From contig RDOB01000002.1 of NCBI GenBank assembly GCA_011364965.1, forward strand, positions 403,317 through 467,316: a stretch of 64,000 nt of DNA, given 5' to 3'. The DNA is from Candidatus Heimdallarchaeota archaeon (GTDB taxonomy: Archaea > Asgardarchaeota > Heimdallarchaeia > Hodarchaeales > Hodarchaeaceae). The translations under genes were made by a program, and so were the position numbers. A model generated the notes under the pieces. It was not told where the DNA came from. It saw only the letters and a program-made list of their open reading frames with translations, and made no database searches. Of this stretch, positions 14,481 to 59,440 are shown piece after piece (within the stretch, counting starts at the first letter, position 1; each line of letters opens with the position of its first letter).

Positions 14481-14618
14481 CTCCAAATGAATACAAAGAC
14501 GTATGATATTCGTGAGATATTCCCAGGGTATTCTTATATGTATTGCTTAAGTCAAATCAATTGCTAGAATGACTAAAATGTTAAATTCAGTGATAATGTA
14601 ATTTCCTTTGAATTGAAG

Positions 14619-16492: not shown

Positions 16493-16497
16493 AAGCT

Positions 16498-17847: not shown

Positions 17848-17890
17848 GAAAAGTGTATTATTCTCTTATGATATGCTATCTTATTTCAAT

Positions 17891-18418: not shown

Positions 18419-18610
18419 TCATTTCACCAATAGATTCTAATTGTACCGAATTAAGTTTTTACTATTTTCTTATTCTTTACTCAAGTTACTGATAATAAGC
18501 AATTTGTAACAGGATTAGTTAAAAAAATATTTATCTCAACCATCTTCTAACTTATCTTAAGATTAATTTTTGGTAAATCACCTAATAATCGTAAGGCGGA
18601 AGATGAATTA

Positions 18611-20291: not shown

Positions 20292-20494
20292 GTACCGTTT
20301 GAAAATTTTAACTATTTAATTGAACTCGCCTTGATTCTGTTTGGATATTTAGTATTTTTTTAATCAAGAATTAATAACTTTCCAAATTTGTTAATTAGAT
20401 TCAAATAAAAATCTTTCAATTATCGAGGTTTCGAATAACACCTATTTTAATTAAGATAAAAATTTGCGTTTTTAAACAAAGGAATGGACTTAGA

Positions 20495-25757: not shown

Positions 25758-28700
25758 ATGAATAAAATAAAAATGGGATTTAAAATGGGAAAATGGAAAT
25801 TTTTGTTAATCTCCATGATTCTACTGCTAGTAGGGGGTTCAACAGCTCTTTCAACGTTTTCTTCTAACTTAGTGACTTCTGAAAGGGTGAAAGAAACTTC
25901 TATATTACTTTCACCATTACAAGGTAACTATATTTTACCAGAAACATATTCACCTCCCCGATTGGTTATAACAAGCGAACCAACAGTTAACGCGATGGCA
26001 GATCATACCATGTCTTTGAGAGGAACTAATGATAGTCTTCGATTTAGTGTCATGTTTACAGCAGATGAAACTGCGCATTATTGGATGCATGCAAGGCTAT
26101 ATGACAATACAGAAAGTACTATTATTATAGAATCGGACTCTTGGGGCGAAACTATCATTGCAGGAAACACTAGAACTGTTATATTTGACTTTTGTGGCTA
26201 TATAATCAATGAAGCGGGATTCGATGGTCCCTATGCAGTATACTTGGATTTTAATATGGAATTGAGTAATGGAACCACCATTCATATTTATGGAGACGAA
26301 ATAACTCCATACGAGAATGTTCACTGGACAAAACCATATCTAGCAACAGATTTTGCAGTGTATCCAATAATTATCAATTCTGTCACACCCAACTATATAG
26401 ATACTGATAATGGTTTATATGAATGGGTAGATGTTGAACTCGATTTGACTGTCAATATAAAAGATGATTATTGGTTTGATGCCAATTTTCGTTTTACGGG
26501 TACTGGAAGTCCTGAAGATGCATATACTCGCCAATATTTGACCGTTGGCACTCATACCGTGACATTAAAGTTTGCTACATGGGATTTTGCACAATATAGC
26601 GTAAGTGCTGAAACTATGATGTTAAGTTATTTATATATTCGGCATGATACCTCTCCTAGTTGGGGAGTATTTGAAGCATGGGATTATTATACTACTGGAT
26701 CCACTTATTCTTCAAGTGATTTCGATACCCCTCCAATAGTATTAACAGGTCGATTTTGGGAAGATACAGAGAGTAACTGGGATCTCGATGGTGATGGAAA
26801 ATTCGATTATTACAAAGTTATTGCTGAAGTTGACAAACTTCGAGTTGAAGATGGACAATTTAGGCTTTATGCTAATCTTTGTAATGAAACAGGATATGGA
26901 ATCAGTGGTGGATGGGCTGAATATAATTCAGATGCTTTTCAGCTCAATAACATTGAACCAGTGAATGTGACATTTGTTTTTAATGGGATTGATATTTATA
27001 GAAATAAGCTTTTCAATAGTCGACTGTTATTAAATAACCTACAGGGCTATTATTCCTATAATACTCCAAATTGGGATGATTGGTTTTCATTTAGCGATAC
27101 CTGGTTAAGTCCAACCTATTATAATTTCACTGCATTTGAAGGGCCTACAGCATTTTTAACTGGCAATTTCTATGATTATGGATTGGATACTGATGGTGGT
27201 GGTTTTGATTATCTAGTGGTCGAAATTGAAGTTGATGTTTTAGAAGCACGCGAGTTTGGGTTCTATGGCGACATCCATGCTAATGATAGATACCAATATG
27301 CATCAATGTCATATACGTTCACTAGTACTGGTGTTCAAACTGTCTCCTTACAATTTGAAGCGTTCGAAATTTATCGAAGCGGAATTGTAAACACCCCAGT
27401 TACACTATACATTAGTTTAGAACAACATAATCCATATGTCTATTTGCAAGGTATGTCAGTTGATTTAAGTAATTATACATATAGTGATTTCAATCCTCCT
27501 CATGCACAATTCTTTATACCTGCGGCCTTTAGTGAGTATACATTCGATTCTACTGATCCTGATACAACGTGGGATGAACTAAAGATCGTCGTACCCCTTC
27601 AGGTTAACAAGGCTGGTTATTATTACGTCTATGGTACCTTAAGAAATCCTGTTACAAATCAAGACCGAAGCTTTTCTAGTACCTATGCATACTTCAATGT
27701 AGGGAATGAATCAACGATAACTTTGTCTTTCCCCAGTGCGTGGTTCTGGGCTCAACACACCAATACAAGTTATATCCTCTCGTATGTCCAAATTACGGAA
27801 ACAGATTCGAGTGGAAATTCTCTCAGATCATGGGATACAATATATAACGCCTATACTACCAGTATTTATGATTCTACCGATTTTGATGCCCCTCCAGCTT
27901 ATATCACTGGGAACTTCTATGAGTGGACTGTTGATAAAGACTCAGATGGTGATTTTGATTTTTTGGTTGTTGCAATTGAAATTGAGACTACTCTTAGCGG
28001 TTTAAATGTGGAATTAGACGCTAATCTACAGACATCAGTATATGATAGAGGGACATATAATTATACATCCTTAAATTATGTCGGTAGGCATAATATCAGT
28101 ATGTTCTGGGATGCAACACAACTTTGGGATACTCAAAGCGAAACAGAAAACTATACCATCAATTTCAGGATGTATGATACCTATAATTGGATTCTCTTAG
28201 ACCAACAAAACTATATTACTCATGCCTACTCATGGTATCAATGGGATCCCCCTGGAATTACATTTACAGGAAATGTTAGTGAGAATGCATACGATGCAGA
28301 TTATCCAGTAGATGGAAAATACGACTTTATAGAAATTAGCGTTGAAGTTCAAGTCACTCAAGCAGGTTACTATAATTTAGAAGGGTCTATCTATGCTTAC
28401 GATGGCGGAGACAGCGCATGGTTCTATGCTGATTATCAATATTATTCCGTTGGAATACACTGGATTACCACAAAAGCAGTCAATTATGCTTGGGTACGAA
28501 ATCATCTCGATGGTACAGGTTTTTATATTAGCTATATGTATCTTCATGAGCAAATATCAGGTTTCGAAACAATCCTTCAGGATTATGACGAATCAGATCA
28601 CGACTTCAGTCGTATATACTATCATTCCGAATTTGATCAATTGGATGCATGGGTTGTCAGTATTATTAACAATTTCGTAGTAGATACGAATAACGATTCG

Positions 28701-30023
28701 TTGTACGATTATTGGAGTGTCGTTTTCCTCATAAATGTAATCAAAGATGGTGCAAATCTCTACTTTTGTGCAGATTTGGAATCAGTAGAAACAGGTAACT
28801 ATATCGCAGACGCATATGTTTATCTATACGGTGTACCAGACGGTTTATTAAATATCACCCTCAACTTTCGTGGCTCTCGCCTCTATAACTCTGGTTTCTC
28901 TGGACAGGTTCGAATTTCATATTATTATCTTGTAGAAACCACTGAATGGATGGAACTTCAGAGAAAATATCCTGATTTCATTCTTGATGGTACTTATTCA
29001 TTCAGTGACTTTTCTCCAAGTTATATTGACCTCACAAATGTTTGGCCATTATCTGGAAGTATTTTCCTTAAAAACGAAAATACAGGTGTCGGTTTTGGTT
29101 TTGAGACATCTGATAACGAAGATGTAAGCTGGATAACTGTGGAGATTTGGATTGATGATGTATATGAAAAAAGTATTAGTTTGTATTCTAGTAAGTCCCA
29201 TAGCCTTAACTATGAAGAATGGGGCGACATTGAGCTCACATTCGATCGTGGAAGCAGATGGGAACTTGTAGTCAATGTTTATGGAACTGAAGGATCCGAA
29301 AGAACATATACCATCATTTACTTCGTGATTGGGGGTCCAGTGTTCTTTGAATTCCGTGCAAATATCTCTGCAGTTATGCTTGGTGGAACGATCAAATTCA
29401 CTGCTGATGTATATGATGTAGATGGAATAGCAAGCGTTACACTTCATATTGAGGGTACTGAAGTTCCAATGGCTTTTGAAAGCAATTCCACTTGGGGTGA
29501 ATATTGGTTCGTTGAATATACTTTCAATACTGTTGGGCAATTTGCAGTTTATGCTACAGCTGAGGATAGTACAGGGATGATAGGAATGTCCGCGGAGCGT
29601 ACTATATATGTCAATGATGGCCCTGAGATTATATCGGTTACAGTGTCTCCTGATAATACAGTTGATGTGGGTGAAGAGGTCACTTTTGTAGTTCAAATAC
29701 GTAAATCGGACGCAATTATCACAAGCGTAACATTAGAAGTCGTGGACAACAAAGGAAACAAATATATCGATGATTTTATTCTATCAACACAAAATAACGA
29801 AACACTTACTTATACTGCAAAATTTACTCCTCAGAAAGTCGGAACACACGTTTGTACGATCCGTGCATTAACTACAAAAAACCAAGTATCAAGTGCTGAA
29901 GAAATTCTTACAGTACTTGGAACAGAAACAATCAATGTCACCCCTGGTTTTGATTTCTTTGTAGCGCTCTGTCTTTTGTCACTAATTCCAACAATAGAAA
30001 AAGCTCGGAGAAAAAAGGATTAA
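25758..30023 (+). CDS. Giant modular cell-surface protein (1421 aa) with a signal/anchor helix, tandem ~120-135-aa modules, Ig-like C-terminal domains and a PGF-CTERM-type tail
   Basis: N-terminal WKFLLISMILLLVGG. Repeated module core F(D/E)xPPxxxTGxF..D.D.DG.FD(Y/F)LVVxIEV..xxxGxY. C-terminal ..NVTPGFDFFVALCLLSLIPTIEKARRKKD. Many N-x-S/T sequons. Confidence 0.8.
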   Translation: MNKIKMGFKMGKWKFLLISMILLLVGGSTALSTFSSNLVTSERVKETSILLSPLQGNYILPETYSPPRLVITSEPTVNAMADHTMSLRGTNDSLRFSVMFTADETAHYWMHARLYDNTESTIIIESDSWGETIIAGNTRTVIFDFCGYIINEAGFDGPYAVYLDFNMELSNGTTIHIYGDEITPYENVHWTKPYLATDFAVYPIIINSVTPNYIDTDNGLYEWVDVELDLTVNIKDDYWFDANFRFTGTGSPEDAYTRQYLTVGTHTVTLKFATWDFAQYSVSAETMMLSYLYIRHDTSPSWGVFEAWDYYTTGSTYSSSDFDTPPIVLTGRFWEDTESNWDLDGDGKFDYYKVIAEVDKLRVEDGQFRLYANLCNETGYGISGGWAEYNSDAFQLNNIEPVNVTFVFNGIDIYRNKLFNSRLLLNNLQGYYSYNTPNWDDWFSFSDTWLSPTYYNFTAFEGPTAFLTGNFYDYGLDTDGGGFDYLVVEIEVDVLEAREFGFYGDIHANDRYQYASMSYTFTSTGVQTVSLQFEAFEIYRSGIVNTPVTLYISLEQHNPYVYLQGMSVDLSNYTYSDFNPPHAQFFIPAAFSEYTFDSTDPDTTWDELKIVVPLQVNKAGYYYVYGTLRNPVTNQDRSFSSTYAYFNVGNESTITLSFPSAWFWAQHTNTSYILSYVQITETDSSGNSLRSWDTIYNAYTTSIYDSTDFDAPPAYITGNFYEWTVDKDSDGDFDFLVVAIEIETTLSGLNVELDANLQTSVYDRGTYNYTSLNYVGRHNISMFWDATQLWDTQSETENYTINFRMYDTYNWILLDQQNYITHAYSWYQWDPPGITFTGNVSENAYDADYPVDGKYDFIEISVEVQVTQAGYYNLEGSIYAYDGGDSAWFYADYQYYSVGIHWITTKAVNYAWVRNHLDGTGFYISYMYLHEQISGFETILQDYDESDHDFSRIYYHSEFDQLDAWVVSIINNFVVDTNNDSLYDYWSVVFLINVIKDGANLYFCADLESVETGNYIADAYVYLYGVPDGLLNITLNFRGSRLYNSGFSGQVRISYYYLVETTEWMELQRKYPDFILDGTYSFSDFSPSYIDLTNVWPLSGSIFLKNENTGVGFGFETSDNEDVSWITVEIWIDDVYEKSISLYSSKSHSLNYEEWGDIELTFDRGSRWELVVNVYGTEGSERTYTIIYFVIGGPVFFEFRANISAVMLGGTIKFTADVYDVDGIASVTLHIEGTEVPMAFESNSTWGEYWFVEYTFNTVGQFAVYATAEDSTGMIGMSAERTIYVNDGPEIISVTVSPDNTVDVGEEVTFVVQIRKSDAIITSVTLEVVDNKGNKYIDDFILSTQNNETLTYTAKFTPQKVGTHVCTIRALTTKNQVSSAEEILTVLGTETINVTPGFDFFVALCLLSLIPTIEKARRKKD

Positions 30024-44202: not shown

Positions 44203-44369
44203 TCAGATCAAACCTATATTTTCTATTCGATAGTGATACTTGGATTGTTATAAAAGCTGAGAGTGATACAAAAAATGATAGATTATATATTTTCTCTGAA
44301 AGCATATAAGGACGAAAATTTTCTATTTTAATACAATTCAAAATGCTTCCAGATTTGAGGAAATTCACC

Positions 44370-46697: not shown

Positions 46698-46698
46698 A

Positions 46699-47175
46699 AT
46701 GGAACTAAAATTTAAAGTCAATGGACAAGAAATATTTCTTCAAGTTAATCCTAATGACTCTCTTCTCTACATCCTCCGAGATCGTTTACATTTAACAGGA
46801 ACAAAAAATGGATGTAGCGCAGGTCATTGCGGAGCATGTGTTGTCATTATGAACGAGGAGGCTGTAAAATCTTGTTTACAAAAAGCGAAGCGACTTAATA
46901 ATGCAGAAATTATTACGATTGAGGGTCTTACTCCTAAAGAACCGAGTGGGGAATTACATCCAATTCAACAGGCATTCATCGATGCAACAGCAATCCAGTG
47001 TGGATTCTGTACTCCTGGATACATTATGGAATTATATGGTTTATTTCTAAGAAATCCAGAAGCTTCCCTAGATGAAATCAAAGTAGCTTTAGAAGGACAT
47101 CTGTGTCGTTGTACAGGGTTCAAACCTATTCTTGAGGCAGCAGTATTAGCTCAACAATATCTAAATAAGAAATAG
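46699..47175 (+). CDS. [2Fe-2S]-binding small subunit of the molybdenum hydroxylase
   Basis: GCSAGHCGACVV, QCGFCTPG and LCRCTG. AAGGAG lies 9 nt upstream of ATG 46699. The track's TTG at 46672 is rejected. Confidence 0.9.
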   Translation: MELKFKVNGQEIFLQVNPNDSLLYILRDRLHLTGTKNGCSAGHCGACVVIMNEEAVKSCLQKAKRLNNAEIITIEGLTPKEPSGELHPIQQAFIDATAIQCGFCTPGYIMELYGLFLRNPEASLDEIKVALEGHLCRCTGFKPILEAAVLAQQYLNKK

Positions 47176-48113: not shown

Positions 48114-48599
48114 TTATTTTGAATTATAATGCCATTGAAATAATTCACGTGCTTTATCCAAATCGATCATAGCTACACTATTATGAATACAGCTGAAGGA
48201 ACGACATTTTTTCTGTTCAATTCCTCCCCATTTAATACCCCATCCCTTTAACACGGCAAATATAACACTAAAATCCTCGCCCTTTTTGGTTAATGTGTAT
48301 TGAACGCGAACAGGGATTTTATCACTTAATACTTCTCGTTTGACAATTTCATTCTCTTCTAATAAAGAAAGACCTTCCGAAAGAACACGTGCTGAGATTT
48401 TTTCTCCTTGTATACCTAAAATTTCAGACTGAAAGTCTGAAAAAAACATTTTAGTGTTTAATAATAACCCACATATGATATAAGCAATCCATTTTTTACC
48501 TAAAAGCTTCATTGGAAGCATTGCAGCACATTCATCTACCTCTTGGTCTATTGTTTCATCTCTCAAATCATTTTCGTTCATTATTACGAGATCCTTCAT
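48114..48599 (-). CDS. HxlR-family winged-helix transcriptional regulator
   Basis: LLGKKWIAYIICGLL and PVRVQYTLTKKGEDFSVIFAVLKGWGIKW are typical of HxlR. Confidence 0.75.
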   Translation of the reverse strand: MKDLVIMNENDLRDETIDQEVDECAAMLPMKLLGKKWIAYIICGLLLNTKMFFSDFQSEILGIQGEKISARVLSEGLSLLEENEIVKREVLSDKIPVRVQYTLTKKGEDFSVIFAVLKGWGIKWGGIEQKKCRSFSCIHNSVAMIDLDKARELFQWHYNSK

Positions 48600-48839: not shown

Positions 48840-50438
48840 ATGAATAATAATGAAGAAGAAATATTAATGCGCCAGAGTAAGTGGAGCGGTCGTAGAGTCA
48901 TATTACTCTACTGGTTAGCAATTGTTTTCGTTGGGACAAGCACTGCTGCAGGTCTTGGTGTAACAATTCTCAAGCCGACATATAAAATAGCAGCAGAAGA
49001 TCCTCATGCCGGAATTACAGAACCCTGGTATCCAGAAGATTGCATTGCTTGCCACCCTGACGAAGTTGCAGGCTGGAACACCACTTGGCACGCGCAAATA
49101 GTCGGAGAATATGATCCGTTAGATCCGTTATTGAACGGAAGTAAGGTATCATTTAATAGTACACATTATTGGCGAACTCCAAATACATTACCACCACCAT
49201 CAACCATTACATATTGGACTTACAATCAGCTATTCAACGCCTCTGGACAACAGTGCTGTATGACAACACGATGGTACAATGTTACTCTTATAAACGCGAC
49301 CACTGGAGAAGTCTTATATTTCAATACTACTCTATCTGCTGAACTTGGAGGCTATACAAGCAACATTTGGGACATTGGCGTTTCTTGTGCAGCATGTCAT
49401 CCGAACCCTGGAGAAATCAGTCTGAGTCATACCTATTGTGCAAGTTGTCACTTAGCTGGTGGAAATCAAGGGTTACACTATACGCGAAGTGGTCACTATA
49501 ACGCTCTAAACGACCTATTGGCGAGTACTGATCTCACGACACAAGTATTATTGCATTATACTGGATACTGGTATTATATTGGTCAGAGTACTTACATGCA
49601 AGTTAGCGATCTTGAAACAGGTGAATATTATCGCATTACTTGCGTTACTTGTCATGATCCACACGATTCAACAGTTAATGCAGGTGATGTGTCAAATAAA
49701 ATGAGTCCATGGACAAACCCTTATACAGGAGAAACCTTTGGACCAGGTGGAAGCCAACTACGAGCAGCTACTGTCAATGAACTCTGTGGTATTTGTCATC
49801 ATATCAATCTCAATACTAGTACAGGAGCATTCCTAGATCCAAGCAATCATACTGCATTAAGCTGTACTAATTGTCACGGTTACTCGTACACTCCAGCTAC
49901 CAATACGACTGGTGCACTAGTTCACAGTTGGGTATTTGGTGGACCCGAACCCGGAGATGCTTGTGGTGTATGCCATTATGAAAATGCTTCCACTGTTTAT
50001 GCTCAGATGCTTGCATATCTAGACCAATTTGGTGATGTTGCCACTTTGAGAGCTGAATATGAAACTAAGTTAGCAGCTGCCGAATTAGCATACAACACAG
50101 CTAATACAACAGAAGGAGCTGATGCTGCGAAGCTAGCTAACGCTTATGCTTTGATTGAAGAAGCTAAAGAATTAGCTGAACGTTCTGCTCTAACTTTCCA
50201 CAATCCTGAATTAGGTACAGCTGTTGAGGAATCGCAGTTATCGCTAGCATTAACAAAACTAGATGAAGCAACAACAGAAGCTTTGGAAGCTCTTCCAACT
50301 ACGACCACAACTACGACCACAACTACAACTGCTGCAACCACCACCACCACTACTACTGCTGCAACATCCGCAATTGGTTTAGTTGCTGTAATGAGCATCT
50401 TAAGTGTTGTAATAGTATTCCGAAGGAAACGACGTTAG
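48840..50438 (+). CDS. Membrane-tethered multiheme c-type cytochrome (seven CxxCH)
   Basis: Heme-binding motifs CIACH, CAACH, CASCH, CVTCH, CGICH, CTNCH and CGVCH. N-terminal hydrophobic helix, helical Ala/Glu-rich stalk, poly-Thr linker, C-terminal TM helix and RRKRR. Confidence 0.85.
   Translation: MNNNEEEILMRQSKWSGRRVILLYWLAIVFVGTSTAAGLGVTILKPTYKIAAEDPHAGITEPWYPEDCIACHPDEVAGWNTTWHAQIVGEYDPLDPLLNGSKVSFNSTHYWRTPNTLPPPSTITYWTYNQLFNASGQQCCMTTRWYNVTLINATTGEVLYFNTTLSAELGGYTSNIWDIGVSCAACHPNPGEISLSHTYCASCHLAGGNQGLHYTRSGHYNALNDLLASTDLTTQVLLHYTGYWYYIGQSTYMQVSDLETGEYYRITCVTCHDPHDSTVNAGDVSNKMSPWTNPYTGETFGPGGSQLRAATVNELCGICHHINLNTSTGAFLDPSNHTALSCTNCHGYSYTPATNTTGALVHSWVFGGPEPGDACGVCHYENASTVYAQMLAYLDQFGDVATLRAEYETKLAAAELAYNTANTTEGADAAKLANAYALIEEAKELAERSALTFHNPELGTAVEESQLSLALTKLDEATTEALEALPTTTTTTTTTTTAATTTTTTTAATSAIGLVAVMSILSVVIVFRRKRR
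50298..50367 (+). repeat. Thr-codon (ACN) low-complexity tract with a perfect 12-nt tandem duplication
   Basis: ACTACGACCACA occurs twice (50298-50309 and 50310-50321), followed by ACC/ACT runs. The tract encodes the TTTTTTTTTTAATTTTTTTAAT linker. Confidence 0.6.
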
Positions 50439-50721: not shown

Positions 50722-52926
50722 ATGATTCACACTATCGTAAAACATTTAGAAGTTAAAAGACCTATAAAATATTCCTTTCTTGCGTTAATATTAATCACTT
50801 TTTTTTTAGTAAATAATGCACATATTTTACCACAGCAATTTCTAAATGAAAATCTACCTAACCAGAAAAATTATAAGATAAACGTTGAAACAGAGCAAAA
50901 AAATTTTGAAGATCTTTGTTTAAGTAGACTAACTCGAGCAAGTGATTCTGATGTAATTTTTCCTACCTTTCTTTATCTCTCGATCGAAATTGCAAATCTT
51001 CTTATTGAGAATTTATATGATAATGTATCGAATGGATTCTATTTTTCTATTGATGAAGAATGGCGAGAGGTTACTATTAATTCTGAAAAACGAACCTATG
51101 ATAATGCTCAAGCAATATTAGGGTTGTTAAAACTTGCTGAAGCTGTTATTAATCAGACTGAAAGTGATTTTGCGCTAAATATTGCGGAAAGTACAGCTAA
51201 TGGCTTACTTAATAATTTATGGGATCCAGATTTTGACGGTTTCTTTATTAGTCCATCAGATAGATATAAAAAGCCAGGGATTCATGGAAAAGCCATTCAA
51301 GCTTTTTTAGCATTATATGAGGAAACAGGAATCTCTTCTTATCGTGAAACAGCAATTGATACATTGAATTTTATTGATAGAGTAGCTTGGAATGACTCTG
51401 AAGGTTATTATATTTATGTGACATCACACACTGGGTTACCTCTGATCGTGAATCCATATCAAGGGGATCCATATGAACCCCAATCTCTCCGAGTAGATCA
51501 TAATTCAATCATGGGAATTGCATTGCTCGATTTTTATCGTATAGATACCAATTCAACATATTTAACAAAAGCCTGCCGGATCTATGATATTATTAATGAA
51601 ACATGTAGGAATAGCACTACGAATTTATTTTATACAGGTGTGGATAGTCACCATGAAATAGTTTATCCAGAGGCGTCAGACCTCTTCATTAATTCTCTTG
51701 TTCTGGAATTTCTAGCTCAACTCTACAATGTAACAGAGGATCAGAAGTATTATGAGGACTTTTTTATTTTATTGAATACTGTATTACTCAATTTCTGGGA
51801 TAATGATTATGGAGGTTTCATATCTACACGTTCTTCGGGTAATTTTAGCTCCGATGATAGAACTAAATTTACAGAAAGGCAATTTTACGGAATTGAAGCA
51901 CTTGATAAAGCTTATAAGCTCACAAATAACGATCTATATTATAATCTTATTTTAGATACGATCGAAATTCTCAATACAAATCTTTATGACCAAATTAATG
52001 GTGGATACTACCAATTAGCAAATCCAGACGGATCCCAAAGCGGTGATGCAACGTGGAAAATGAAAGTAACTGTTACTCAATCATTAGGTATTTATACATT
52101 AGCAAATATCTGGTTGTATAGCAAACCAAGTGCCCTAAATGTTATTTGGTCACCAACTACTCCACGTCCCCAAGATAAAGTTTCTCTATTAATTGCAGCT
52201 TTTGATCCAGTAGGTATTTCAACAGTCTTTCTGAATTACTCTATTGATGGAAGTAATTTTAAATTATTAGAAATGGTTCCACATCTCGTTAAAAACATGT
52301 TTATATGTAATATTGACCCTCCATATAAAGATGGAACATCTATAAACTTTAATATTATTATTACCAACGCCAATGATGAACAAGTTATTAGAGGTGATTA
52401 CTCCTTCCTCTGGCAATTTGATAGATGGCCTCCTGAGGTTCAAGTGCTTGGATTTTTACCTGGAATAGAAATACCAGTAAACGAAGAATTTACAATTATT
52501 GTTACTGCAAATGATATCCCCTCTCAAGGAAGTGTTAGATATGTTCGTATCCATTATTATCTTACTGAACGCGACGTTAAAAACGTACTTCTTAACCAAT
52601 TTGACGTACATTTATGGAAAATAACCTTTCCTGAGGGGCTTCCTATACCCGGAACTTATACCTATTATTTCGAGTCATCAGATTTAGAATGGAACCCTAG
52701 TTTTAGCCATGTAGATACCTTTACTATTTTAGGAAGCTTAGAGGTTCCGTTCCCTCTATCACAAGTTGTATTTTTCTTACTTTTTATCGGTGTATTTGTC
52801 CCTACTGGATTGTATTCCTATGTTGAATATAAGAAAAAGAGTGCACGGAAGAAATTAAAGGTTATACGTGAAGTTCGTAACAAGAAAATGAGAAGATTGA
52901 ATAAGCGTGGTACGAAAAGAACTTAA
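50722..52926 (+). CDS. Membrane-anchored protein with a probable (alpha/alpha)6-barrel (AGE/DUF255-like) domain, Ig-like domains and a C-terminal TM anchor
   Basis: N-terminal helix FLALILITFFLV. Repeated helical-hairpin motifs (YDNAQAILGLLKLAEA, GKAIQAFLALYEETG, NSIMGIALLDFY, NSLVLEFLAQLYN, QFYGIEALDKAYKLT). C-terminal VVFFLLFIGVFVPTGLYSYV plus a Lys/Arg-rich tail. Confidence 0.5.
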   Translation: MIHTIVKHLEVKRPIKYSFLALILITFFLVNNAHILPQQFLNENLPNQKNYKINVETEQKNFEDLCLSRLTRASDSDVIFPTFLYLSIEIANLLIENLYDNVSNGFYFSIDEEWREVTINSEKRTYDNAQAILGLLKLAEAVINQTESDFALNIAESTANGLLNNLWDPDFDGFFISPSDRYKKPGIHGKAIQAFLALYEETGISSYRETAIDTLNFIDRVAWNDSEGYYIYVTSHTGLPLIVNPYQGDPYEPQSLRVDHNSIMGIALLDFYRIDTNSTYLTKACRIYDIINETCRNSTTNLFYTGVDSHHEIVYPEASDLFINSLVLEFLAQLYNVTEDQKYYEDFFILLNTVLLNFWDNDYGGFISTRSSGNFSSDDRTKFTERQFYGIEALDKAYKLTNNDLYYNLILDTIEILNTNLYDQINGGYYQLANPDGSQSGDATWKMKVTVTQSLGIYTLANIWLYSKPSALNVIWSPTTPRPQDKVSLLIAAFDPVGISTVFLNYSIDGSNFKLLEMVPHLVKNMFICNIDPPYKDGTSINFNIIITNANDEQVIRGDYSFLWQFDRWPPEVQVLGFLPGIEIPVNEEFTIIVTANDIPSQGSVRYVRIHYYLTERDVKNVLLNQFDVHLWKITFPEGLPIPGTYTYYFESSDLEWNPSFSHVDTFTILGSLEVPFPLSQVVFFLLFIGVFVPTGLYSYVEYKKKSARKKLKVIREVRNKKMRRLNKRGTKRT

Positions 52927-52945: not shown

Positions 52946-55156
52946 GTGTTTTACATTGGTTTTGGAATAGATTTAGGAGCAATTATTCTTATTGTAGCAT
53001 TTCTAGCTTTATTATTGGATGCATTTTTTGTATTAGCCGGGAAATACCTAGAGAAGTGGGAGATTTATTCGGAAATTAGTCTGTTGATAGGAGCTTCAGC
53101 ACTCCTCATTTCTTTTTTCTATTTTGCTTTTTTAATTGTAACCACAGATTTCAATTTTTATTTTGTAAGCGAATATGTGAATAGCAGAATGGATTTTTTC
53201 CTCCGATTGTCAACAATTTGGAGTAGTCAACCTGGGAGTTATTTCTTTTGGGCATTTTTAATTTCTATTATCTATTTCAGCTTTCGAATACTCTTTAGAC
53301 AATTCGCACATGAAGCCATTTTTTGGCGTAGCTTCGTCTTAGCTGCCCTCCACTTAGCTTTACTTGTTTTTTTAACAATAATTAATGATCCTTTTAAATT
53401 AAATAAGGAAGTACCTTTAGATGGACTTGGATTGAATCCTTTATTGATGAATATCTGGAATGTAATTCATCCACCAATTATTTTCATAAGTTATGCTCTT
53501 TGTTTGCTCCCTATGGTTATTGCGATCGCTAGGCTTTCCGTTCTTGAAGATGGTAAAGTACCAGAATTTGAAGGTAAAGAAAAACTTGATGGATTCTTTG
53601 ATTTCACAGTCTCGTTAGCTTGGCTTGCTTTGAGTATAGGTATTATTCTTGGGGCCTATTGGGCCTATATCACTCTTGGTTGGGGAGGATTCTGGGCTTG
53701 GGATCCTGTTGAGACTGCTTCATTAATACCTTGGCTTTTCATAACTTTTTATTTCCATGGCAAACCATTTTTCCGGAAAAAAGATTTTCTAAGCAATTAT
53801 TTAGTAAGTATGGGTTATATTGGAACCTTATTTACTACCTACTTAACACGAAGTGGTGTGGTATCAAGTGTCCATGCTTTTGTACCTAGTGGTACTCTAG
53901 AAAAGATTCTATCTATGTTTATTCCTAAAGATTTCTTCTTAATGAGTATTATTCTCAGAATCATCCCAGACGAAAAGGTACTTTTCATCTTTGGAGGTGT
54001 AATGATAACGTTCCTTCTTCCTCTTATTCTAGGAATTAAAAATAGAGAAATTTTTAGAATCCCAATTGAGTTGAGTAAAGAGGACTTTACAGCTTCCCGT
54101 CATCAGACAACCGCATTAAAAATATCTTTTATATCAGGTTTAATAGGTACTTATATAATCCTATTAGGATTAATAGCACCAGTGATTTATGACCTTTTAG
54201 GTTATATAATTACTTTGAGTTCGAAGGGAATCTCTCCAAGCATTACTATAAGCCAACCTTTCTACAATACTGTAATCACCATTTTTGGCGGGGTTATGTT
54301 AATTGCTCAGTTTTTCTGTACATTTTATCCAAAGATCGCTATTAGACGAAAGTTTCAATTATTAATAGGTGGAGTTGTTGCAGGGATTTTATTTGCAATT
54401 AGTGGCATTCTATATCATAATGGTGTTCTTGCGTCAATGTTAGGGGGAAATAATCCAATTATTACCATTTTAGGTGAATTTTGGACAACTAGTATCAAAG
54501 CTAATTTAGTATTACCTCTCATGTTTCTAGGGATAGTAGGATTAATTATAGAATTTATAAATATAATATTAAAAGATGAAAAAAACCTTCTTCGAAAATC
54601 ATCTCAAACAATGTTGCATTTATCTTTCTTAATAATTCTTGTTGGCGCATTAGTTGCTGCCAACACATCTTTTACAACAAATATAACAGTTCAAAATGGT
54701 ACAGATATGGAAATATCTGGGACAACATTGAGGATCGAAGTTATAAATCTTAGAAAAACAGTACCAGAGTCTGGTTTACATGCCATAGATTATGATACAG
54801 AGTTCATTATCTCTTCAGGAGGTCGTGTATTGGGATATGGTATTAGTAGACTCTATGTGGATCATTTTAATCGTGTAGGGCATCAAGTGACAATAATTAG
54901 TAGTTTTCTTAGTGACATTTACATCATAACAATGAATGTTGCAGAGAATCCCATATATGGGACGTTCGATTTTTCTGCTCTTCAGATAAAAATTATTCCA
55001 TATGTAAATTTACTTTGGATTGGGTGTTTCTTGCTTATCTTTGCGATTTTTCCTTTAACAATTGGCAAGTTTCTTTCCCTGAAGGAGATTTTCAAAATTG
55101 AGGAAGAAATAACCGATGAGACTTTAAATAAAGGTGATAAGGATGATCAAAACTAG
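52946..55156 (+). CDS. ccmF: Cytochrome c-type biogenesis protein CcmF (heme lyase component)
   Basis: WWD-type motif WGGFWAWDPVETASLIPWL. Polytopic, 736 aa. AAGGAG lies upstream of the GTG start. Confidence 0.85.
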   Translation: MFYIGFGIDLGAIILIVAFLALLLDAFFVLAGKYLEKWEIYSEISLLIGASALLISFFYFAFLIVTTDFNFYFVSEYVNSRMDFFLRLSTIWSSQPGSYFFWAFLISIIYFSFRILFRQFAHEAIFWRSFVLAALHLALLVFLTIINDPFKLNKEVPLDGLGLNPLLMNIWNVIHPPIIFISYALCLLPMVIAIARLSVLEDGKVPEFEGKEKLDGFFDFTVSLAWLALSIGIILGAYWAYITLGWGGFWAWDPVETASLIPWLFITFYFHGKPFFRKKDFLSNYLVSMGYIGTLFTTYLTRSGVVSSVHAFVPSGTLEKILSMFIPKDFFLMSIILRIIPDEKVLFIFGGVMITFLLPLILGIKNREIFRIPIELSKEDFTASRHQTTALKISFISGLIGTYIILLGLIAPVIYDLLGYIITLSSKGISPSITISQPFYNTVITIFGGVMLIAQFFCTFYPKIAIRRKFQLLIGGVVAGILFAISGILYHNGVLASMLGGNNPIITILGEFWTTSIKANLVLPLMFLGIVGLIIEFINIILKDEKNLLRKSSQTMLHLSFLIILVGALVAANTSFTTNITVQNGTDMEISGTTLRIEVINLRKTVPESGLHAIDYDTEFIISSGGRVLGYGISRLYVDHFNRVGHQVTIISSFLSDIYIITMNVAENPIYGTFDFSALQIKIIPYVNLLWIGCFLLIFAIFPLTIGKFLSLKEIFKIEEEITDETLNKGDKDDQN

Positions 55157-55565
55157 AAATTTGCTTATCTCTGGATTGATTATTTCTGTATGTGTATTCG
55201 CATTATTTTTTCTGTTATTCAATACTTCTATCCCAATATTTACTGTGAAAGAGTTAATAGACCATCCTAGACCTGAATCATTATTAAATCATAAAATTCA
55301 ATTAATAGGTATTGTGGGAACAATAGATACTTCAGGATTTTTACTATACGATCCTGAAGATCAAACTAATGCAACTTTGATTATTTACATTGAAGCTATA
55401 AATGTTACTAAACCCGGAGGATTCGTGATCGGAAAAACCATTCTTGTTGAAGGACAACTAACATCTATTTCTGGGGTATGGACTTTAAAGGCCTCTATGA
55501 TCAGTACTAAATGTCCCTCAAAATATGATGGAGGAGCTGAAATAGGAGAAGAAATTGATGGCTAG
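55134..55565 (+). CDS. ccmE: Heme chaperone CcmE, variant type with a CXXXY heme-binding motif
   Basis: N-terminal TM anchor, an OB-fold-sized domain, and the C-terminal STKCPSKYDG motif in place of the canonical HxxxY. Confidence 0.75.
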   Translation: MIRMIKTRNLLISGLIISVCVFALFFLLFNTSIPIFTVKELIDHPRPESLLNHKIQLIGIVGTIDTSGFLLYDPEDQTNATLIIYIEAINVTKPGGFVIGKTILVEGQLTSISGVWTLKASMISTKCPSKYDGGAEIGEEIDG

Positions 55566-56238
55566 TAGATTAAAAGAAAATCCATTTTGGATATTTTTGC
55601 TTTTTCTATCGTGTTTAATGATTATAAACTTCTTTTTAGTATATATCTCGATAAAATCATTTCAAGGATTTACTGTATCAGGACGTCCAATCTTTTACAT
55701 GGTTTCTTTTGCTTTTTCTACATATGTTTGTTTTGGAATTGTATTATTAAGTAGCATTCTTTATTTGTGGAAAAAAAGTTTTCTTTTTGATCTTTTAGTT
55801 GTTGCTGGAGCACAAGTGGGTGTAGTTACGGGAGCTATAACAATTTTAGTAGGAATGATTTGGTCATATGTCGAATGGGGGTACTTCTGGCAATGGGAGC
55901 CAAGACAAACAACAACGTTAATAATGTGGATGGCTTATATAGGATTACTTATATTTCGTGAGATGCTTGATGAAAATTATCCTGAAAAACGAGGGACATT
56001 AACATCAATATTTGGAATTGTAAGCTTTCCATCTGTACCTTTATCAAACTACGTGGTTGGTGCTTTACACCCTCCTCCACAACAAACAACATTAGAAGAA
56101 GGATTAGGAATGCTTTTAATGTTGAATTTTCTTTTAATTGGTGCAATTTGCGTATTACTGGTATATCTAACCTATAGGACAAATGAAATAGACTTTAAAC
56201 TTAAAAAAATTCGAAAAATAAAAATGGAGGCGTTTTAA
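55558..56238 (+). CDS. ccmC: Heme exporter protein CcmC
   Basis: WWD motif WGYFWQWEPRQTTTL. Six TM helices. The start overlaps the ccmE stop. Confidence 0.85.
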   Translation: MASRLKENPFWIFLLFLSCLMIINFFLVYISIKSFQGFTVSGRPIFYMVSFAFSTYVCFGIVLLSSILYLWKKSFLFDLLVVAGAQVGVVTGAITILVGMIWSYVEWGYFWQWEPRQTTTLIMWMAYIGLLIFREMLDENYPEKRGTLTSIFGIVSFPSVPLSNYVVGALHPPPQQTTLEEGLGMLLMLNFLLIGAICVLLVYLTYRTNEIDFKLKKIRKIKMEAF

Positions 56239-56507: not shown

Positions 56508-57209
56508 TTGAATACTCCTCCCAGACCTGTCGTTAGACTCACTAATATTTCGAAAACATATGGTTTCGTTCAAGCCTTGAAAAATATAAACTTAGATATC
56601 AATCAAGGGGAAATTGTAGGTTTGGTGGGAAATAATGGAGCTGGGAAGAGCACACTTCTGAAAATAATTGCTCTACTAGTAAAACCCGCAGAAGGAATAA
56701 TTGAGCTTTTTAATAGGCAAGTTGATGACGAGATTCACTCTTTCAAGAAGAATTTAGGGATCCTGTTAAATTCTCCTTTTTTTTATGAGGATTTAACTGG
56801 TCGTGAAAATTTTCATTTTTTCCTGCGAATGAAAAAACAAGTAAAGCATCCCCAAAAAGTAGTTCAGGATATTATTGATCAATATGGATTGAAATTATTC
56901 ATAGACCGTCCTTATTACGAGTTATCAACTGGGATGATGAAAAAATTGGAGATTTTAAGAACTATATCCCCAGATTTTCCTTTACTACTTCTTTTAGATG
57001 AACCCTTTAGCGGATTAGATACTGAAAATAAGAAATTCCTCTCAAATTTAATTACCAATAAAGGATCAAAAAATACTGTGATTCTTTGTTCACATGATTT
57101 TAACATCGTAAATAACCTTTGTAGTAAAATTGTATTACTTGAAAGAGGGAAAATTAAGAAAATTTTCATGCCAACAGAATATAATCACCTTCTAGCTCAT
57201 TTTACTTAA
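56508..57209 (+). CDS. ccmA: Heme-export ABC ATPase CcmA
   Basis: Walker A GNNGAGKSTLLK, degenerate signature LSTGMMKKLE, Walker B LLLLDEPFSGLD. The call is supported by its position within the ccm cluster. Confidence 0.75.
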   Translation: MNTPPRPVVRLTNISKTYGFVQALKNINLDINQGEIVGLVGNNGAGKSTLLKIIALLVKPAEGIIELFNRQVDDEIHSFKKNLGILLNSPFFYEDLTGRENFHFFLRMKKQVKHPQKVVQDIIDQYGLKLFIDRPYYELSTGMMKKLEILRTISPDFPLLLLLDEPFSGLDTENKKFLSNLITNKGSKNTVILCSHDFNIVNNLCSKIVLLERGKIKKIFMPTEYNHLLAHFT

Positions 57210-57230: not shown

Positions 57231-57911
57231 ATGATAAGTGATATATTGATTTTAGTCCGAAAAGATGTGTTATTAGAATTTAGAAAAAGAGAAACCATTT
57301 ATTCGATGGGTTTATTTACCTTTTCTTCAATCCTAATTTTTTCTGCTTTATTAAATTTTATAGATGCTCCTTTAGAAACAAAAAATGGAATATCCATTAC
57401 TTGTCTATTATTTATTATAACTTTCTCTGTGATGCTTGGACTTACTTCAATATTCTCTCGCGAAATTAAGAATAATTCGATTTATCGTCTCCTTTCATTA
57501 TCTATTAAACCTCAAGTAATATTTTTGTCGAAATTTGTATATTTATTTTTAATGACAGGTTTTATTGAGATCTTTGCTTTTATTTTAGCAATTATATTTT
57601 TAAAAATAGACTTTCAAGTTAATATTTTAGTATATTTCATTTTTCTGACGATAGGTACCTTAGATCTAACTATTGCAGGATGTATTGTAGCTTTTTTGAC
57701 ATTATATGCTAAATCAAAATCATTAGCTGTTCCTATCTTATTCTTTCCTTTGGTCCTTCCATCAGTTCTTATTGAAACACAGGTTTCGTTGAATATGGTT
57801 TTAATGAATGATATAAATTATATGATAACAAATTTATTGATTCTTTTTTTTCATGGAGTAATAATACTTGCTTTCGTATTACTGGTAGCTGAAGAGCTTA
57901 TTCAAGACTAA
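57231..57911 (+). CDS. ccmB: Heme exporter membrane protein CcmB
   Basis: Six TM helices. It is collinear with E. coli CcmB as I recall it (RKDVLLEFRKRETI; FSREIKNNSIYRLLSLSIKPQVIFLSKFV; FFPLVLPSVLI). Confidence 0.7.
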   Translation: MISDILILVRKDVLLEFRKRETIYSMGLFTFSSILIFSALLNFIDAPLETKNGISITCLLFIITFSVMLGLTSIFSREIKNNSIYRLLSLSIKPQVIFLSKFVYLFLMTGFIEIFAFILAIIFLKIDFQVNILVYFIFLTIGTLDLTIAGCIVAFLTLYAKSKSLAVPILFFPLVLPSVLIETQVSLNMVLMNDINYMITNLLILFFHGVIILAFVLLVAEELIQD

Positions 57912-58002: not shown

Positions 58003-58944
58003 TTACTTTCTAAGGTTAGATCTTTGATTTTTACGTAGTCGTTTTTGGTAGAGACATAACGTTATAGTTAACGTTATCAGAAAAGTCGATAATAAAAATC
58101 CAGGTGTTCGACGGGCAGGAGGAGAAGAAGTGGTGGTTGTACTGGTCGGCGCAATACTAACTTCGCTAGAATTTGAAGTGGCCGTAAACCTATAGAAAAC
58201 ATTAGCCCAGGATCCAGCGTCATTTTCAGCGTAGAGTCTTAGATCATGGATCGAATCATCAGCAGGAAGAGTGATATCATAGGGAGCATCAAGAGTCTCA
58301 TTAACTAGTGCATTATCCCAATTATACAATACTTGAGATATAAGTGCATTAGGATCTTCAATTGAGAAATCGATTGTCGATCCACCGAGGATGATTGAAT
58401 TATTTGTAGGATAATTAAGTGTGACAATAGGTGGTGGGATACCTACTCTAAAGATAAATACTCCTGAAACCCAATTGTTTGAATAATCTTCTGCATAAAG
58501 GTATAAAGTATGTAAACCATTAGTTTCTGGTAATGTAAATTCATAGATATCGATCTCACTTTTCAGGTCGTGGACTTCAAGACTGCTGTTAGACGAGGCT
58601 GTATCCCATGAATAAAGAATTTGTAACATTTCATACATAAAATTGTCATCAGTAATCTTTATGGAGATAATTGTTCCTCCAAGATTAATTGAGTATTGTT
58701 CAGGGGAGATTAGTGTTAATAGAGGAGGGGTAGAATCCGTATGATCGCAACAAGCATCTTCAACTCTATATTCATATAGAATTATTACTTCTGAATTGTG
58801 AATATTATTCATATTCTCTTTTGCATCATTATGATTCGCTTTCAGTAATAAAGTTGTATTTGTTAAAAATATGCTACCAACCAAAAATATGGAAAAAAGA
58901 ATTATTGAGATTAAAAGAGATGTTCGGGTAATTTTTTGTAACAA
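58003..58944 (-). CDS. Secreted/surface protein with two tandem ~95-aa beta-rich repeats and a PGF-CTERM-type tail
   Basis: N-terminal helix LLISIILFSIFLVGSIFL. Repeats begin at PPLLTLISPEQYSINLGGTIISIKITDDN and at PPPIVTLNYPTNNSIILGGSTIDFSIEDPN. C-terminal TSTTTTSSPPARRTPGFLLSTFLITLTITLCLYQKRLRK. Confidence 0.6.
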   Translation of the reverse strand: MLQKITRTSLLISIILFSIFLVGSIFLTNTTLLLKANHNDAKENMNNIHNSEVIILYEYRVEDACCDHTDSTPPLLTLISPEQYSINLGGTIISIKITDDNFMYEMLQILYSWDTASSNSSLEVHDLKSEIDIYEFTLPETNGLHTLYLYAEDYSNNWVSGVFIFRVGIPPPIVTLNYPTNNSIILGGSTIDFSIEDPNALISQVLYNWDNALVNETLDAPYDITLPADDSIHDLRLYAENDAGSWANVFYRFTATSNSSEVSIAPTSTTTTSSPPARRTPGFLLSTFLITLTITLCLYQKRLRKNQRSNLRK

Positions 58945-59440
58945 ATCTTGCTCACCTTTTTCGGAATTCTTAGAATAGATAGTAAAATTCTATTGAATTG
59001 AAAAATATTCTTTATATATACATTTGGGTGTCCAAGAATAGAGTAAGAATTTTAATAGCAAGTAATAAAAAAGTAAGGATTTTTTGTTTAGCAATTAATA
59101 GGATATTTTTTTATTAAATACAAAAATACTGGCGTATAACTATCATTAGGAAAAAACTATAACATAAGGAGATTTAGTCTCCTTAGAGCCTAGATAAGCA
59201 TAATTGATCTAAGTTTTAAAGGTAAGATATATTTTTAATTCTTCTTCTATTACCTTACTTTTTAGTTAGTTGCTTCCTAAATAGATATTTAACTCCAGAT
59301 CAACCAAATATATATAAAACATTCATACCTGATGTTGTAGCATTCTTCTTAGAAAAAATTTACGAAATTAATATTAAATAAACGAGTAAAAAAGAAACCT
59401 GAGCTTTTTGATATATAATATAACTAAAGGATGGTTTAGT

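Follow-up and report, generated by a model that had tools for sequence, protein, structure and literature searches.

The 64,000-nucleotide stretch analysed here (contig RDOB01000002.1, positions 403,317 to 467,316, assembly GCA_011364965.1 of a Candidatus Heimdallarchaeota archaeon; hereafter the window) is AT-rich, with ~34% GC, and encodes a multiheme c-type cytochrome at 48840..50438. The preferred reading, to which we assign a probability of about 55%, is that this protein is a non-catalytic, seven-heme wire on the cell surface, derived from an OcwA-type cytochrome and matured by the cytochrome c maturation (Ccm) proteins encoded next to it. The two components of this reading differ in strength. 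The identity of the protein and its surface placement, as judged from the sequence, are very probable, and its function as an electron conduit, inferred from homology and architecture, is a matter of even odds.

Models of eukaryogenesis hinge on the way in which the Asgard host and its partners traded reducing power. No known archaea are closer to eukaryotes than the Hodarchaeales and related Heimdallarchaeia, which have been described as lacking cytochrome c. A Ccm-linked multiheme cytochrome at the surface is a testable candidate for the missing electron route, which would lead outward or, less likely, into respiration. If it is indeed a surface conduit, it bears on the syntrophy-based models of eukaryogenesis and on the claim that cytochrome c is absent. 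The protein would also give the sparsely sampled OcwA/OmhA family its first archaeal branch. The protein is not of a new kind; it is a member of the NrfA/octaheme superfamily that fails to show the nine hemes, the two open-site hemes and the catalytic histidines. Four features are unreported for the OcwA/OmhA family: the Asgard host, a highly conserved transmembrane (TM) "handle", a C-terminal anchor preceded by a poly-Thr linker, and the fixed partnership with an (α/α)6 protein and CcmF.

The gene and the parts of its product were as follows, with the heme motifs placed by alignment mapping on OcwA.

48840..50438, plus strand: OcwA-like multiheme c-type cytochrome gene, 532 aa, ATG start
48840..48896, plus strand: predicted cytoplasmic N-terminal tail, residues 1–19, MNNNEEEILMRQSKWSGRR, with 65% mean pairwise identity among 19 Asgard homologues
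48897..48974, plus strand: TM helix 1 (TM1), residues 20–45, with the motif G32xxxA36xxxG40, from hydropathy, AlphaFold and conservation
49041..49055, plus strand: CIACH, corresponding to OcwA heme 1
49248..49262, plus strand: QQCCM (residues 137–141), degenerate OcwA heme-2 site
49386..49400, plus strand: CAACH, corresponding to OcwA heme 3
49437..49451, plus strand: CASCH, corresponding to OcwA heme 4
49521..49592, plus strand: lost OcwA heme-5 site, residues 228–251, without Cys, from comparison with relatives
49641..49655, plus strand: CVTCH, corresponding to OcwA heme 6
49785..49799, plus strand: CGICH, corresponding to OcwA heme 7
49863..49877, plus strand: CTNCH, corresponding to OcwA heme 8
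49962..49976, plus strand: CGVCH, corresponding to OcwA heme 9
49956..50288, plus strand: NrfA/OcwA-type C-terminal bundle of long helices, residues 373–483, from Pfam Cytochrom_C552, AlphaFold and the OcwA alignment
50295..50366, plus strand: 24-residue Pro-Thr/Ala linker, residues 486–509, read from the sequence
50361..50435, plus strand: TM helix 2 (TM2; residues 508–527) and RRKRR tail, with SAIG in place of PGF, from hydropathy and the CTERM signals of relatives

The ATG start was confirmed by the homologues, because all full-length ones open with the same sequence (MNDQEEILVRQSKW; consensus MN[DN]QEEIL[VM]RQSKW). Seven CxxCH motifs, at residues 68, 183, 200, 268, 316, 342 and 375, used 14 of the 16 cysteines. 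For a protein of 532 aa with 16 Cys and 19 His, composition arithmetic gives ~0.02 such motifs by chance, and any other open reading frame (ORF) in the window had at most one. All seven were kept in alignments of 19 to 81 homologues. Six to seven histidines outside the motifs (H56, H84, H219, H275, H337, H362, and H454) were also conserved, and these could act as distal ligands, in a number sufficient for the seven canonical hemes.

Twelve N-x-S/T sequons were counted in the protein. This represented a 2.5-fold enrichment over shuffled ectodomains, which had a mean of 4.8 (standard deviation 2.0) and reached 12 in 0.08% of cases. Their density was 2.3 per 100 aa, compared with 0.2–1.0 in the cytoplasmic proteins of the window (2–10 times). 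Kyte-Doolittle hydropathy peaked only at residues ~20–45 and 508–527, the AlphaFold model had terminal helices at 17–44 and 512–531, and both TM helices carried basic residues at the cytoplasmic flank (SGRR before TM1 and RRKRR after TM2). A preliminary description of this DNA, made from the sequence alone, had proposed a seven-heme c-type cytochrome with more than ten sequons, tethered at both ends and without an S-layer domain. The heme and sequon counts were upheld, a Pfam scan found no S-layer domain, and the double tether is a fair reading of two hydrophobic segments with basic cytoplasmic flanks. The Thr/Ala linker, the TM helix and the RRKRR tail were also present as described, except that the linker had 24 residues (486–509) instead of 22. 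The Ala/Glu/Leu-rich helical segment exists too, although it spans ~110 aa (373–483, with three to four long helices) and not ~80.

Structure prediction depended on the depth of the alignment. The first AlphaFold run, with 19 sequences, gave a mean predicted local distance difference test score (pLDDT) of 47.7 and an unusable heme domain. The second run, with 81 sequences, reached a pLDDT of 79.5 and a predicted template modelling score of 0.68, the model being heme-free. Its long helices (373–395, 400–422, 429–447, and 456–483) had pLDDT >90 over most of their length.

The family was assigned using two profiles, A1 from an Asgard-only alignment and A2 from the wider alignment of 81 sequences, both run against the PDB. 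The best match of A1 was OcwA (6I5B; E-value 1.4e-16, in three collinear stretches), followed by MccA (3.9e-16), OmhA (6QVM; 3e-12), and then octaheme nitrite reductases (ONR) and NrfA. A2 matched OcwA 6I5B at 3e-83 in one collinear stretch that covered chain residues 9–501, starting ahead of heme 1 and taking in all heme sites and the helices to their end. Its other matches were OmhA (9e-60), ONR (~1e-33, from 1e-32 to 1e-36), MccA (7e-32), NrfA (9e-32), and HAO (1e-16), with UndA (5e-13) far behind OcwA and the pentaheme subunit ActA of Alternative Complex III (6e-8) among the weak ones. The OcwA helices aligned with the C-terminal helices of the cytochrome, including the conserved (F/V)HN motif. 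Pfam gave generic multiheme matches only, besides a threshold-level match to PF02335 (Cytochrom_C552; residues 339–501 to profile positions 244–400 of 438, 24.8 bits with a cut-off of 24.1), and the NCBIfam NrfA models did not match the cytochrome. By sequence, the cytochrome belongs to the OcwA/OmhA lineage, in clade 3 of the NrfA/octaheme superfamily, and its helical segment is the NrfA/OcwA-type helix bundle of this superfamily. That segment had been called a stalk and the heme spacing had been said to match no nameable family. Neither statement holds, as the bundle is family-defining and the profiles match the OcwA/OmhA nonaheme family of the NrfA superfamily.

Two other identities were rejected. 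NCBI names distant homologues "ammonia-forming cytochrome c nitrite reductase" or nitrite reductase c552, and the active-site heme motif of NrfA is absent at residues 228–251 of the cytochrome. This name is unjustified for the cytochrome because both the catalytic heme and its pocket are absent. A decaheme identity of the MtrC/OmcA/UndA type was considered from a marginal match to PF22113, domain II/IV (32.3 vs. 30 bits), and the architecture differs: that type has a staggered-cross core of ten hemes, divided between two pentaheme domains that β-barrel domains flank.

OcwA is a nine-heme terminal reductase at the cell surface of the Gram-positive Thermincola potens (PMC6703420). Its hemes 1, 3, 4, 6, 7, and 8 have bis-His coordination and heme 9 has His/Met; hemes 2 and 5, one at either end of the chain, have open sites, are each covered by a His-His motif, and are regarded as the active sites (PMC6703420). 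It reduces iron oxides, soluble shuttles, nitrite and hydroxylamine, and ends in a three-helix bundle (PMC6703420). OcwA, OmhA, MccA, and c554 form one clade in which both catalytic hemes occur in OcwA and OmhA only; the catalytic histidines are kept in all known sequences, and the family was called "very poorly represented" (10.1101/2022.02.24.481543).

When OcwA was added to the A2 alignment, the seven motifs of the cytochrome fell on OcwA hemes 1, 3, 4, 6, 7, 8, and 9, giving seven CxxCH compared with nine in the OcwA/OmhA core. The family consensus at the heme-2 site was CxxCHTTG, with the second Cys (C140 of the cytochrome) invariant in 81 sequences. The clade to which the window sequence belongs (P0002–P0009, 50–64% identity; hereafter the window clade) instead had an almost invariant (G)QQCCMTTRW. 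In QQCCM the first Cys was lost, a Cys stood beside the retained C140, and Met occupied the position of the proximal His. This degenerate eighth site came in addition to the seven motifs described earlier. At the heme-5 site, the equivalent of NrfA heme 1, the window clade had no Cys, while relatives had C[LIM]HCM or CxxCH. Both distal His-His positions were also non-His in the window clade (GGNQ and INLNTS).

The loss of both catalytic heme sites and of the His-His pockets argues for a non-catalytic wire, as far as sequence can tell; a conduit, as proposed earlier, fits this loss better than an enzyme does. A continuous seven-heme wire is suggested by the fact that the lost hemes were terminal or branch hemes of the OcwA chain. 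The cytochrome would then be a natural case of the "pruning" of catalytic hemes proposed for the superfamily, by which a reductase with two active sites becomes a wire (10.1101/2022.02.24.481543).

Other Asgard members showed many states at the same two sites. The heme-2 site was CxxCH, CxxCM, CxxCK (P0032), CxxCR/W/F, CX3CH (P0018), GCCH or GCCM, and in P0017, P0019, and P0024 it was CX7-9CH. Such variant heme motifs usually need dedicated heme lyases. The heme-5 site was almost always C[LIMV]HCM. The family thus appears, from these alignments, to have remodelled both catalytic centres repeatedly, with the window clade in the most reduced state.

A broader pattern, C[LIMVA][HK]CM, replaced the heme-5 CxxCH in most Asgard and several other relatives (P0011–P0040, P0049, P0050, P0052, P0058, and P0062). 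It was also repeated 7–9 times, at a spacing of ~95 residues, in multiheme giants of 970–1620 aa (P0047, P0054, and P0056). A literature search did not find CxxCM described as a natural heme-binding motif. The pattern could be an unrecognised attachment or ligand motif.

The same sites are where an enzymatic alternative has to be weighed: a surface or pseudo-periplasmic reductase of nitrite, hydroxylamine, NO, sulfite or tetrathionate, in which an atypical heme at CCM would be catalytic and the other seven would feed it. All characterised members of the superfamily, OcwA included, have nitrite or NO reductase activity in vitro (PMC6703420, 10.1101/2022.02.24.481543). MccA, whose active site is heme 2, scored nearly as well as OcwA with A1, and the site-2 variation of relatives (CxxCH, the NrfA-type CxxCK, CxxCM, and CX3-9CH) is typical of catalytic hemes. 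The invariance of C140 and the near invariance of QQCCMTTRW also favour this alternative, as does NCBI's naming of distant homologues as nitrite reductases. In culture, Hodarchaeales convert nitrate to nitrite, and the nitrite builds up (10.1101/2025.02.26.640444). However, the cytochrome has no counterpart of OcwA heme 5, which corresponds to the NrfA active site; in the window clade, GG/NQ stands where the His-His pair above site 2 would be; and the Pfam NrfA match is limited to the C-terminal hemes and helices and lies at the threshold. Moreover, one Cys plus Met is a motif that no known maturation system has been shown to handle, and the window encodes a single CcmF. A catalytic role of this kind is therefore regarded as unlikely, and an eighth heme on the CCM remnant as possible.

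The N-terminal tail and TM helix were the most conserved part of the family, with a conservation roughly double that of any stretch of the heme domain. Among the 19 Asgard homologues, mean pairwise identity was 65% in the tail and 74% at residues 20–44, compared with 31–46% in the heme domain. When the window clade was compared with the Asgard clade farthest from it, the corresponding values were 62–73% for the tail and TM helix and 17–35% for the heme domain. Third-codon identity at identical residues was 47% in the N-terminus, compared with 48% for a control block. Synonymous sites thus vary as freely as in the control, which places the constraint at the protein level. An RNA or DNA element in this region was rejected for the same variability of third-codon positions. 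A general Asgard sorting signal was also rejected, since an exhaustive profile search showed this N-terminus only in the cytochrome family and its fragments.

Ten residues of TM1 were invariant (L22, Y24, W25, F30, G32, T33, A36, G38, L39, and G40). The N-terminus combined an aromatic belt (W15, Y24, and W25) with the small-residue face G32xxxA36xxxG40. Faces of this GxxxAxxxG-like type are typical of helix-helix packing. TM1 is probably retained, because a generic cleaved signal peptide would not be so conserved, and it probably packs against itself or a membrane partner. Heme 1 follows only ~22 residues past TM1.

At the other end, the poly-Thr linker is long enough to span the way back to the membrane from where the helix bundle ends, and it is probably O-glycosylated. 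The C-termini of relatives consisted of a Thr-rich linker, PGF, a TM helix and a basic tail. Relative P0017 scored 23.0 bits with Heimdall-CTERM (cut-off 24) and 21.1 bits with Loki-CTERM (cut-off 19.9), and P0012 scored 17.5 and 18.2 bits, respectively. The cytochrome shares the Thr-rich linker, hydrophobic helix and basic tail of the Heimdall-, Loki-, and PGF-CTERM signals, with PGF replaced by SAIG. No archaeosortase was seen among the scanned ORFs of the window.

Two other surface-type proteins of the window ended in TPGF, a TM helix and a basic tail, and this indicated that the organism uses PGF-type sorting signals. One, at 25758..30023 on the plus strand, has 1421 aa, filamin/Ig-like repeats and 18 sequons; the other, at 58003..58944 on the minus strand, has 313 aa, a Big_7-like domain and a Thr/Ser-rich linker.

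The heme domain of the cytochrome should lie outside the cytoplasmic membrane, because of the basic TM flanks, the enriched sequons and the Ccm operon 2.5 kb downstream. The neighbouring genes were as follows.

48114..48599, minus strand: HxlR-family (RrpB-like) regulator, divergent from the cytochrome gene (PF01638 1.7e-15, NF047364 4e-15)
50722..52926, plus strand: Asgard-restricted (α/α)6 AGE/GH76-like membrane protein, 734 aa (Pfam, alignment A3, and synteny)
52946..55156, plus strand: CcmF/NrfE-type heme lyase (PF01578 1.5e-27, TIGR00353 2e-46)
55134..55565, plus strand: CcmE-like heme chaperone with CxxxY (TKCPSKY; weak Pfam CcmE match, position conserved elsewhere)
55555..56238, plus strand: CcmC (TIGR01191 9.5e-18)
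56508..57209, plus strand: CcmA-like ABC ATPase (family matches)
57231..57911, plus strand: CcmB (PF03379 2e-10)

The genes for CcmF, E, C, A, and B lay 2.5–9 kb downstream of the cytochrome. The TKCPSKY motif was ~ten residues before the C-terminus of the CcmE-like protein, and no CcmH was found among the ORFs of the ccm cluster. A variant of System I with CxxxY in place of HxxxY in CcmE and without CcmH was reportedly described from archaea by Allen and colleagues in 2006. Judged by its sequences, the ccm cluster is this archaeal variant of System I, which is predicted to attach heme on the outer face of the membrane.

Eight of nine loci, namely the window and seven of the eight other Asgard loci (numbered with L), had the genes in the order cytochrome, (α/α)6 protein, CcmF. 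The exception was L011, which resembled a second paralogue in L003 that lies beside CcmCAB. The gap between the (α/α)6 and CcmF genes was 0–19 bp in the six loci measured (window and L001–L005), with 19 bp in the window. Outside the window the (α/α)6 genes were located at 12083–14191 (L001), 11687–13798 (L002), 11689–13914 (L003), 11701–13935 (L004), and 12030–14138 (L005). Their products have 700–745 aa and are 46–63% identical across loci, compared with 30–50% for the cytochrome. The (α/α)6 protein has TM segments of its own, an Ig-like C-terminal part, a conserved C-terminal TM helix and a cytoplasmic YVEYKKKSARK tail. Among its 77 homologue clusters, all named ones were Asgard. It could assist the heme lyase and cytochrome c maturation, or it could pair at the surface with the cytochrome, which is probably glycosylated. 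A thiol-redox Ccm component of the CcmG/H type was considered for it and rejected, as it has no conserved Cys pair.

Locus L001 contained two tandem CcmF paralogues (14211–16526 and 16610–18880), which were 61 and 57% identical to the CcmF of the window. By analogy with NrfE, which serves CxxCK, the second could serve a non-canonical motif. Locus L003 contained a second cytochrome paralogue (19783–21279, 498 aa) on the far side of the ccm genes, and L011 seemingly had the same arrangement.

This shared gene order also bears on whether the gene is still in use. A decaying, non-functional relic of an OcwA-type gene of bacterial origin could account for the degeneration or loss of two of the nine ancestral heme sites and for the missing PGF. 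Such decay is extremely improbable. The ORF is intact, the seven motifs and the distal histidines are conserved, and P0002–P0009 share the derived state at 50–64% identity. Furthermore, the protein is conserved while synonymous sites vary freely, and synteny with the maturation genes is kept in eight of nine loci.

The divergent regulator brings in another alternative. Its best NCBIfam match is the regulator of redox and oxidative stress RrpB, and it is possibly a redox-responsive regulator of the cytochrome cluster. Under HxlR/RrpB-like control, the cytochrome might serve as a redox buffer, sensor or detoxifier at the surface, for example as an electron sink or capacitor, or by scavenging oxidants in the manner of a peroxidase. 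A multiheme protein has room for several electrons, an HxlR gene also occurs in the L001 cluster, and genes for peroxiredoxin and a flavodiiron-type protein lie near the L002 cytochrome. However, peroxide chemistry would lack a heme with open coordination, most loci have no HxlR gene beside the cytochrome gene, and the conserved TM handle and two-point tether would be left unexplained. This role is considered very unlikely.

The gene neighbourhood also had to be compared with what an internal respiratory carrier would lead one to expect. Such a carrier would take electrons from quinol, in place of complex III or as an alternative to CymA/NrfH, and pass them to the cell's own oxidase or to a nitrate or other reductase, and it would close the gap reported for electron transport in Heimdallarchaeia. 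A TM anchor with heme 1 ~22 residues on resembles, in architecture only, the NapC/NirT quinol dehydrogenases; profile A2 had the weak ActA match mentioned above, and a heme O synthase gene is no more than 10 kb away in three loci (window, L001, and L002). The Heimdallarchaeia are said to be without cytochrome c, with complex III absent or partial and no route to Cox (10.1101/2025.02.26.640444). The cytochrome c searches in that study, which described the HC1 culture, covered class-I domains only, and carriers of other kinds were explicitly allowed (10.1101/2025.02.26.640444). Against such a carrier, a heme-copper oxidase from Hodarchaeales, when produced in E. coli, oxidised ubiquinol and was inactive with cytochrome c (10.1101/2025.11.07.685452), and neither the window nor the flanks of the other loci contained oxidase (cox), nar or Rieske genes. 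In addition, the sequons, poly-Thr linker and surface-sorting C-terminus are features of exposed proteins, and the closest relatives are surface reductases, not carriers within a chain. A respiratory role is quite unlikely on this evidence.

Returning to the surface wire as the preferred reading, we propose the following mechanism. The heme domain would be displayed on the outer face of the cytoplasmic membrane, held there by TM1, and the C-terminal TM helix would hold the other end via the poly-Thr linker. The adjacent archaeal System I (CcmFECAB) would attach the hemes after export, presumably covalently. The seven canonical hemes would all be six-coordinate and form one uninterrupted wire. 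Electrons would enter at heme 1, close to the membrane, from the quinol pool or from a membrane partner packed on TM1, hop along the hemes and leave distally to mineral oxides, to humic or other shuttles, or to a syntrophic partner cell. The flow could also run in reverse.

Several observations weigh against this reading. Cultured Hodarchaeales are syntrophs of the H2/formate type, and extracellular electron transfer has not been reported for them (10.1101/2025.02.26.640444). Neither a quinol dehydrogenase nor another obvious electron donor is encoded beside the cytochrome gene in the window. A signal peptidase may cut after A36-A37-G38. The C-terminus of the cytochrome is without PGF (SAIG) and scored 11.7 bits with Heimdall-CTERM and 10.1 bits with Loki-CTERM, below the cut-offs, so that it may stay a plain TM anchor rather than being processed by an archaeosortase and anchored to lipid. 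Strict conservation of the CCM remnant points to continued use of site 2, perhaps for a catalytic or substrate-binding heme. The homology to OcwA rests on profiles, as a PDB search with the single sequence returned nothing significant (MccA, E-value 0.42). Profile and structure searches had been recommended in the preliminary description; the profiles placed OcwA first, and Foldseek with the heme-free AlphaFold model against the PDB gave only weak matches to MccA (the best) and NrfA, at a TM-score (template modelling score) of 0.2–0.28, with 6I5B unlisted. The heme packing of the OcwA/OmhA family consists of a c554-like module with an NrfA-like one after it. The fold comparison was not relied on, because heme-free models of multiheme proteins are poor queries, and the outcome is consistent with the OcwA-type assignment of the model but not decisive.

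Compared with OcwA, the cytochrome has the same order of heme motifs and conserved distal histidines, a β-rich insert between hemes 1 and 2 and a C-terminal bundle of long helices, and it is likewise placed, here by prediction, at the cell surface of an organism without an outer membrane. The two differ in that nine CxxCH motifs and two five-coordinate hemes below His-His pairs are present in OcwA, whereas the cytochrome has seven motifs, QQCCM, no site 5 and no His-His. OcwA has a cleaved signal peptide and no membrane anchor, whereas the cytochrome has the conserved TM1, the poly-Thr linker and the C-terminal TM helix. Finally, OcwA is bacterial and thermophilic, and the cytochrome is archaeal (Asgard) and rich in sequons.

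The other relatives of known structure differ in similar ways. OmhA (6QVM), the undecaheme cytochrome of Carboxydothermus ferrireducens, is surface-exposed and shares the OcwA-like nine-heme core; unlike the cytochrome, it has an N-terminal extension with two extra hemes, keeps both catalytic hemes and their histidines, and is associated with the S-layer without TM tethers. MccA (4RKM), the octaheme sulfite reductase of Wolinella, has the clade-3 scaffold with a β-sheet domain and helix bundle, and heme 5 is likewise lost. Unlike the cytochrome, it is a soluble periplasmic trimer with a catalytic heme 2 that has a Cu site and specific Tyr, Lys, and Arg residues, and its eighth heme is bound by CX15CH. 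NrfA and ONR share the C-terminal hemes and long helices, but the catalytic CxxCK/CxxCH heme of NrfA is absent from the cytochrome.

Among archaea, the cytochromes for extracellular electron transfer of anaerobic methanotrophic archaea (ANME-2) and Methanoperedens are, like the cytochrome, surface proteins prone to glycosylation and proposed to carry electrons beyond one membrane. They are far larger, with tens of hemes and S-layer domains, and are not of the OcwA type; the likeness is by description only.

A k-mer-seeded search with the cytochrome returned 21 protein clusters, and all named full-length ones were Asgard, with the labels Hodarchaeales, Hodarchaeota, Heimdallarchaeota, Hermodarchaeota, and Promethearchaeota. 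The exhaustive profile search gave ~40 clusters at E ≤ 1e-30, most of them full-length with the N-terminus included, and a long tail of distant multiheme proteins. The labels of cluster members agreed with Asgard, a more distant branch being labelled Sifarchaeia. A scan of a genome collection gave, among the matches listed, at least four Asgard loci and weak bacterial matches. A literature search did not find a multiheme cytochrome described from Hodarchaeales or other Asgard archaea.

One partial homologue (P0014; 296 aa, 52% identical, with a SAPAIG C-terminus) lay on a 1.53-Mb contig of a metagenome-assembled genome labelled Dehalococcoidia bacterium. Either the sequence was wrongly binned or labelled, or the gene was transferred to a lineage other than the Asgard archaea.

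The conserved neighbourhood allows a wider proposal, which we put forward tentatively: an OcwA-derived cytochrome, an (α/α)6 protein and a dedicated CcmF might form a lineage-specific three-gene module with which Hodarchaeales and related Heimdallarchaeia build a surface conduit for direct electron exchange with partner cells or minerals. Within the same proposal, and just as doubtfully, the cytochrome would be held in a membrane complex by its TM handle, and the heme motifs CCM/CCH and CxHCM would be new. The CCM and CxHCM motifs bear on how heme is attached to cytochromes c, and the TM handle and the coupling of the (α/α)6 protein to CcmF could be of wider interest.

The heme O synthase gene of the window is the last of a trio on the plus strand (59408–60172, 60188–61822, and 61819–62784), in which it follows two membrane proteins. 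The trio also occurred in L001 (1173–6442) and L002 (18403–20972) and was thus near the cytochrome gene in three of nine loci. The first membrane protein has ~220–254 aa and the second, polytopic one ~527–554 aa with the motifs GHLHAM and GHWHIL. Searches of Pfam, NCBIfam, and the PDB with the 254-aa and 544-aa proteins gave noise-level matches only (E 0.2–0.9). The trio may relate to heme handling or to an oxidase.

The distant Asgard clade with CLHCM at site 5 had another gene set 1–6 kb upstream of the cytochrome, consisting of a prokaryotic cytochrome b561, a ~300-aa membrane protein with a weak DOMON-like match (E 0.017), and paired MetOD1 genes. It was located at 4404–6040 and 8653–9333 in L002, at 3287–4959 and 7693–9091 in L003, and at ~6160–8975 in L011, and was absent from the window. 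This set could be a transmembrane electron route.

Further upstream in the window, ~1.7 kb from the cytochrome gene, a molybdoenzyme of the xanthine dehydrogenase type was encoded at 44343–47175 on the plus strand, with large and 2Fe-2S subunits. Xdh was highlighted as a trait of the Hodarchaeales in the HC1 culture study (10.1101/2025.02.26.640444). The region at 5192–13492, also on the plus strand, contained proteins with DNA methyltransferase domains (N6_Mtase/Eco57I-like, 740 aa; N6_N4_Mtase, 693 and 711 aa), with a PHO4 phosphate transporter interspersed among them. This cluster is probably a restriction-modification or defence island.

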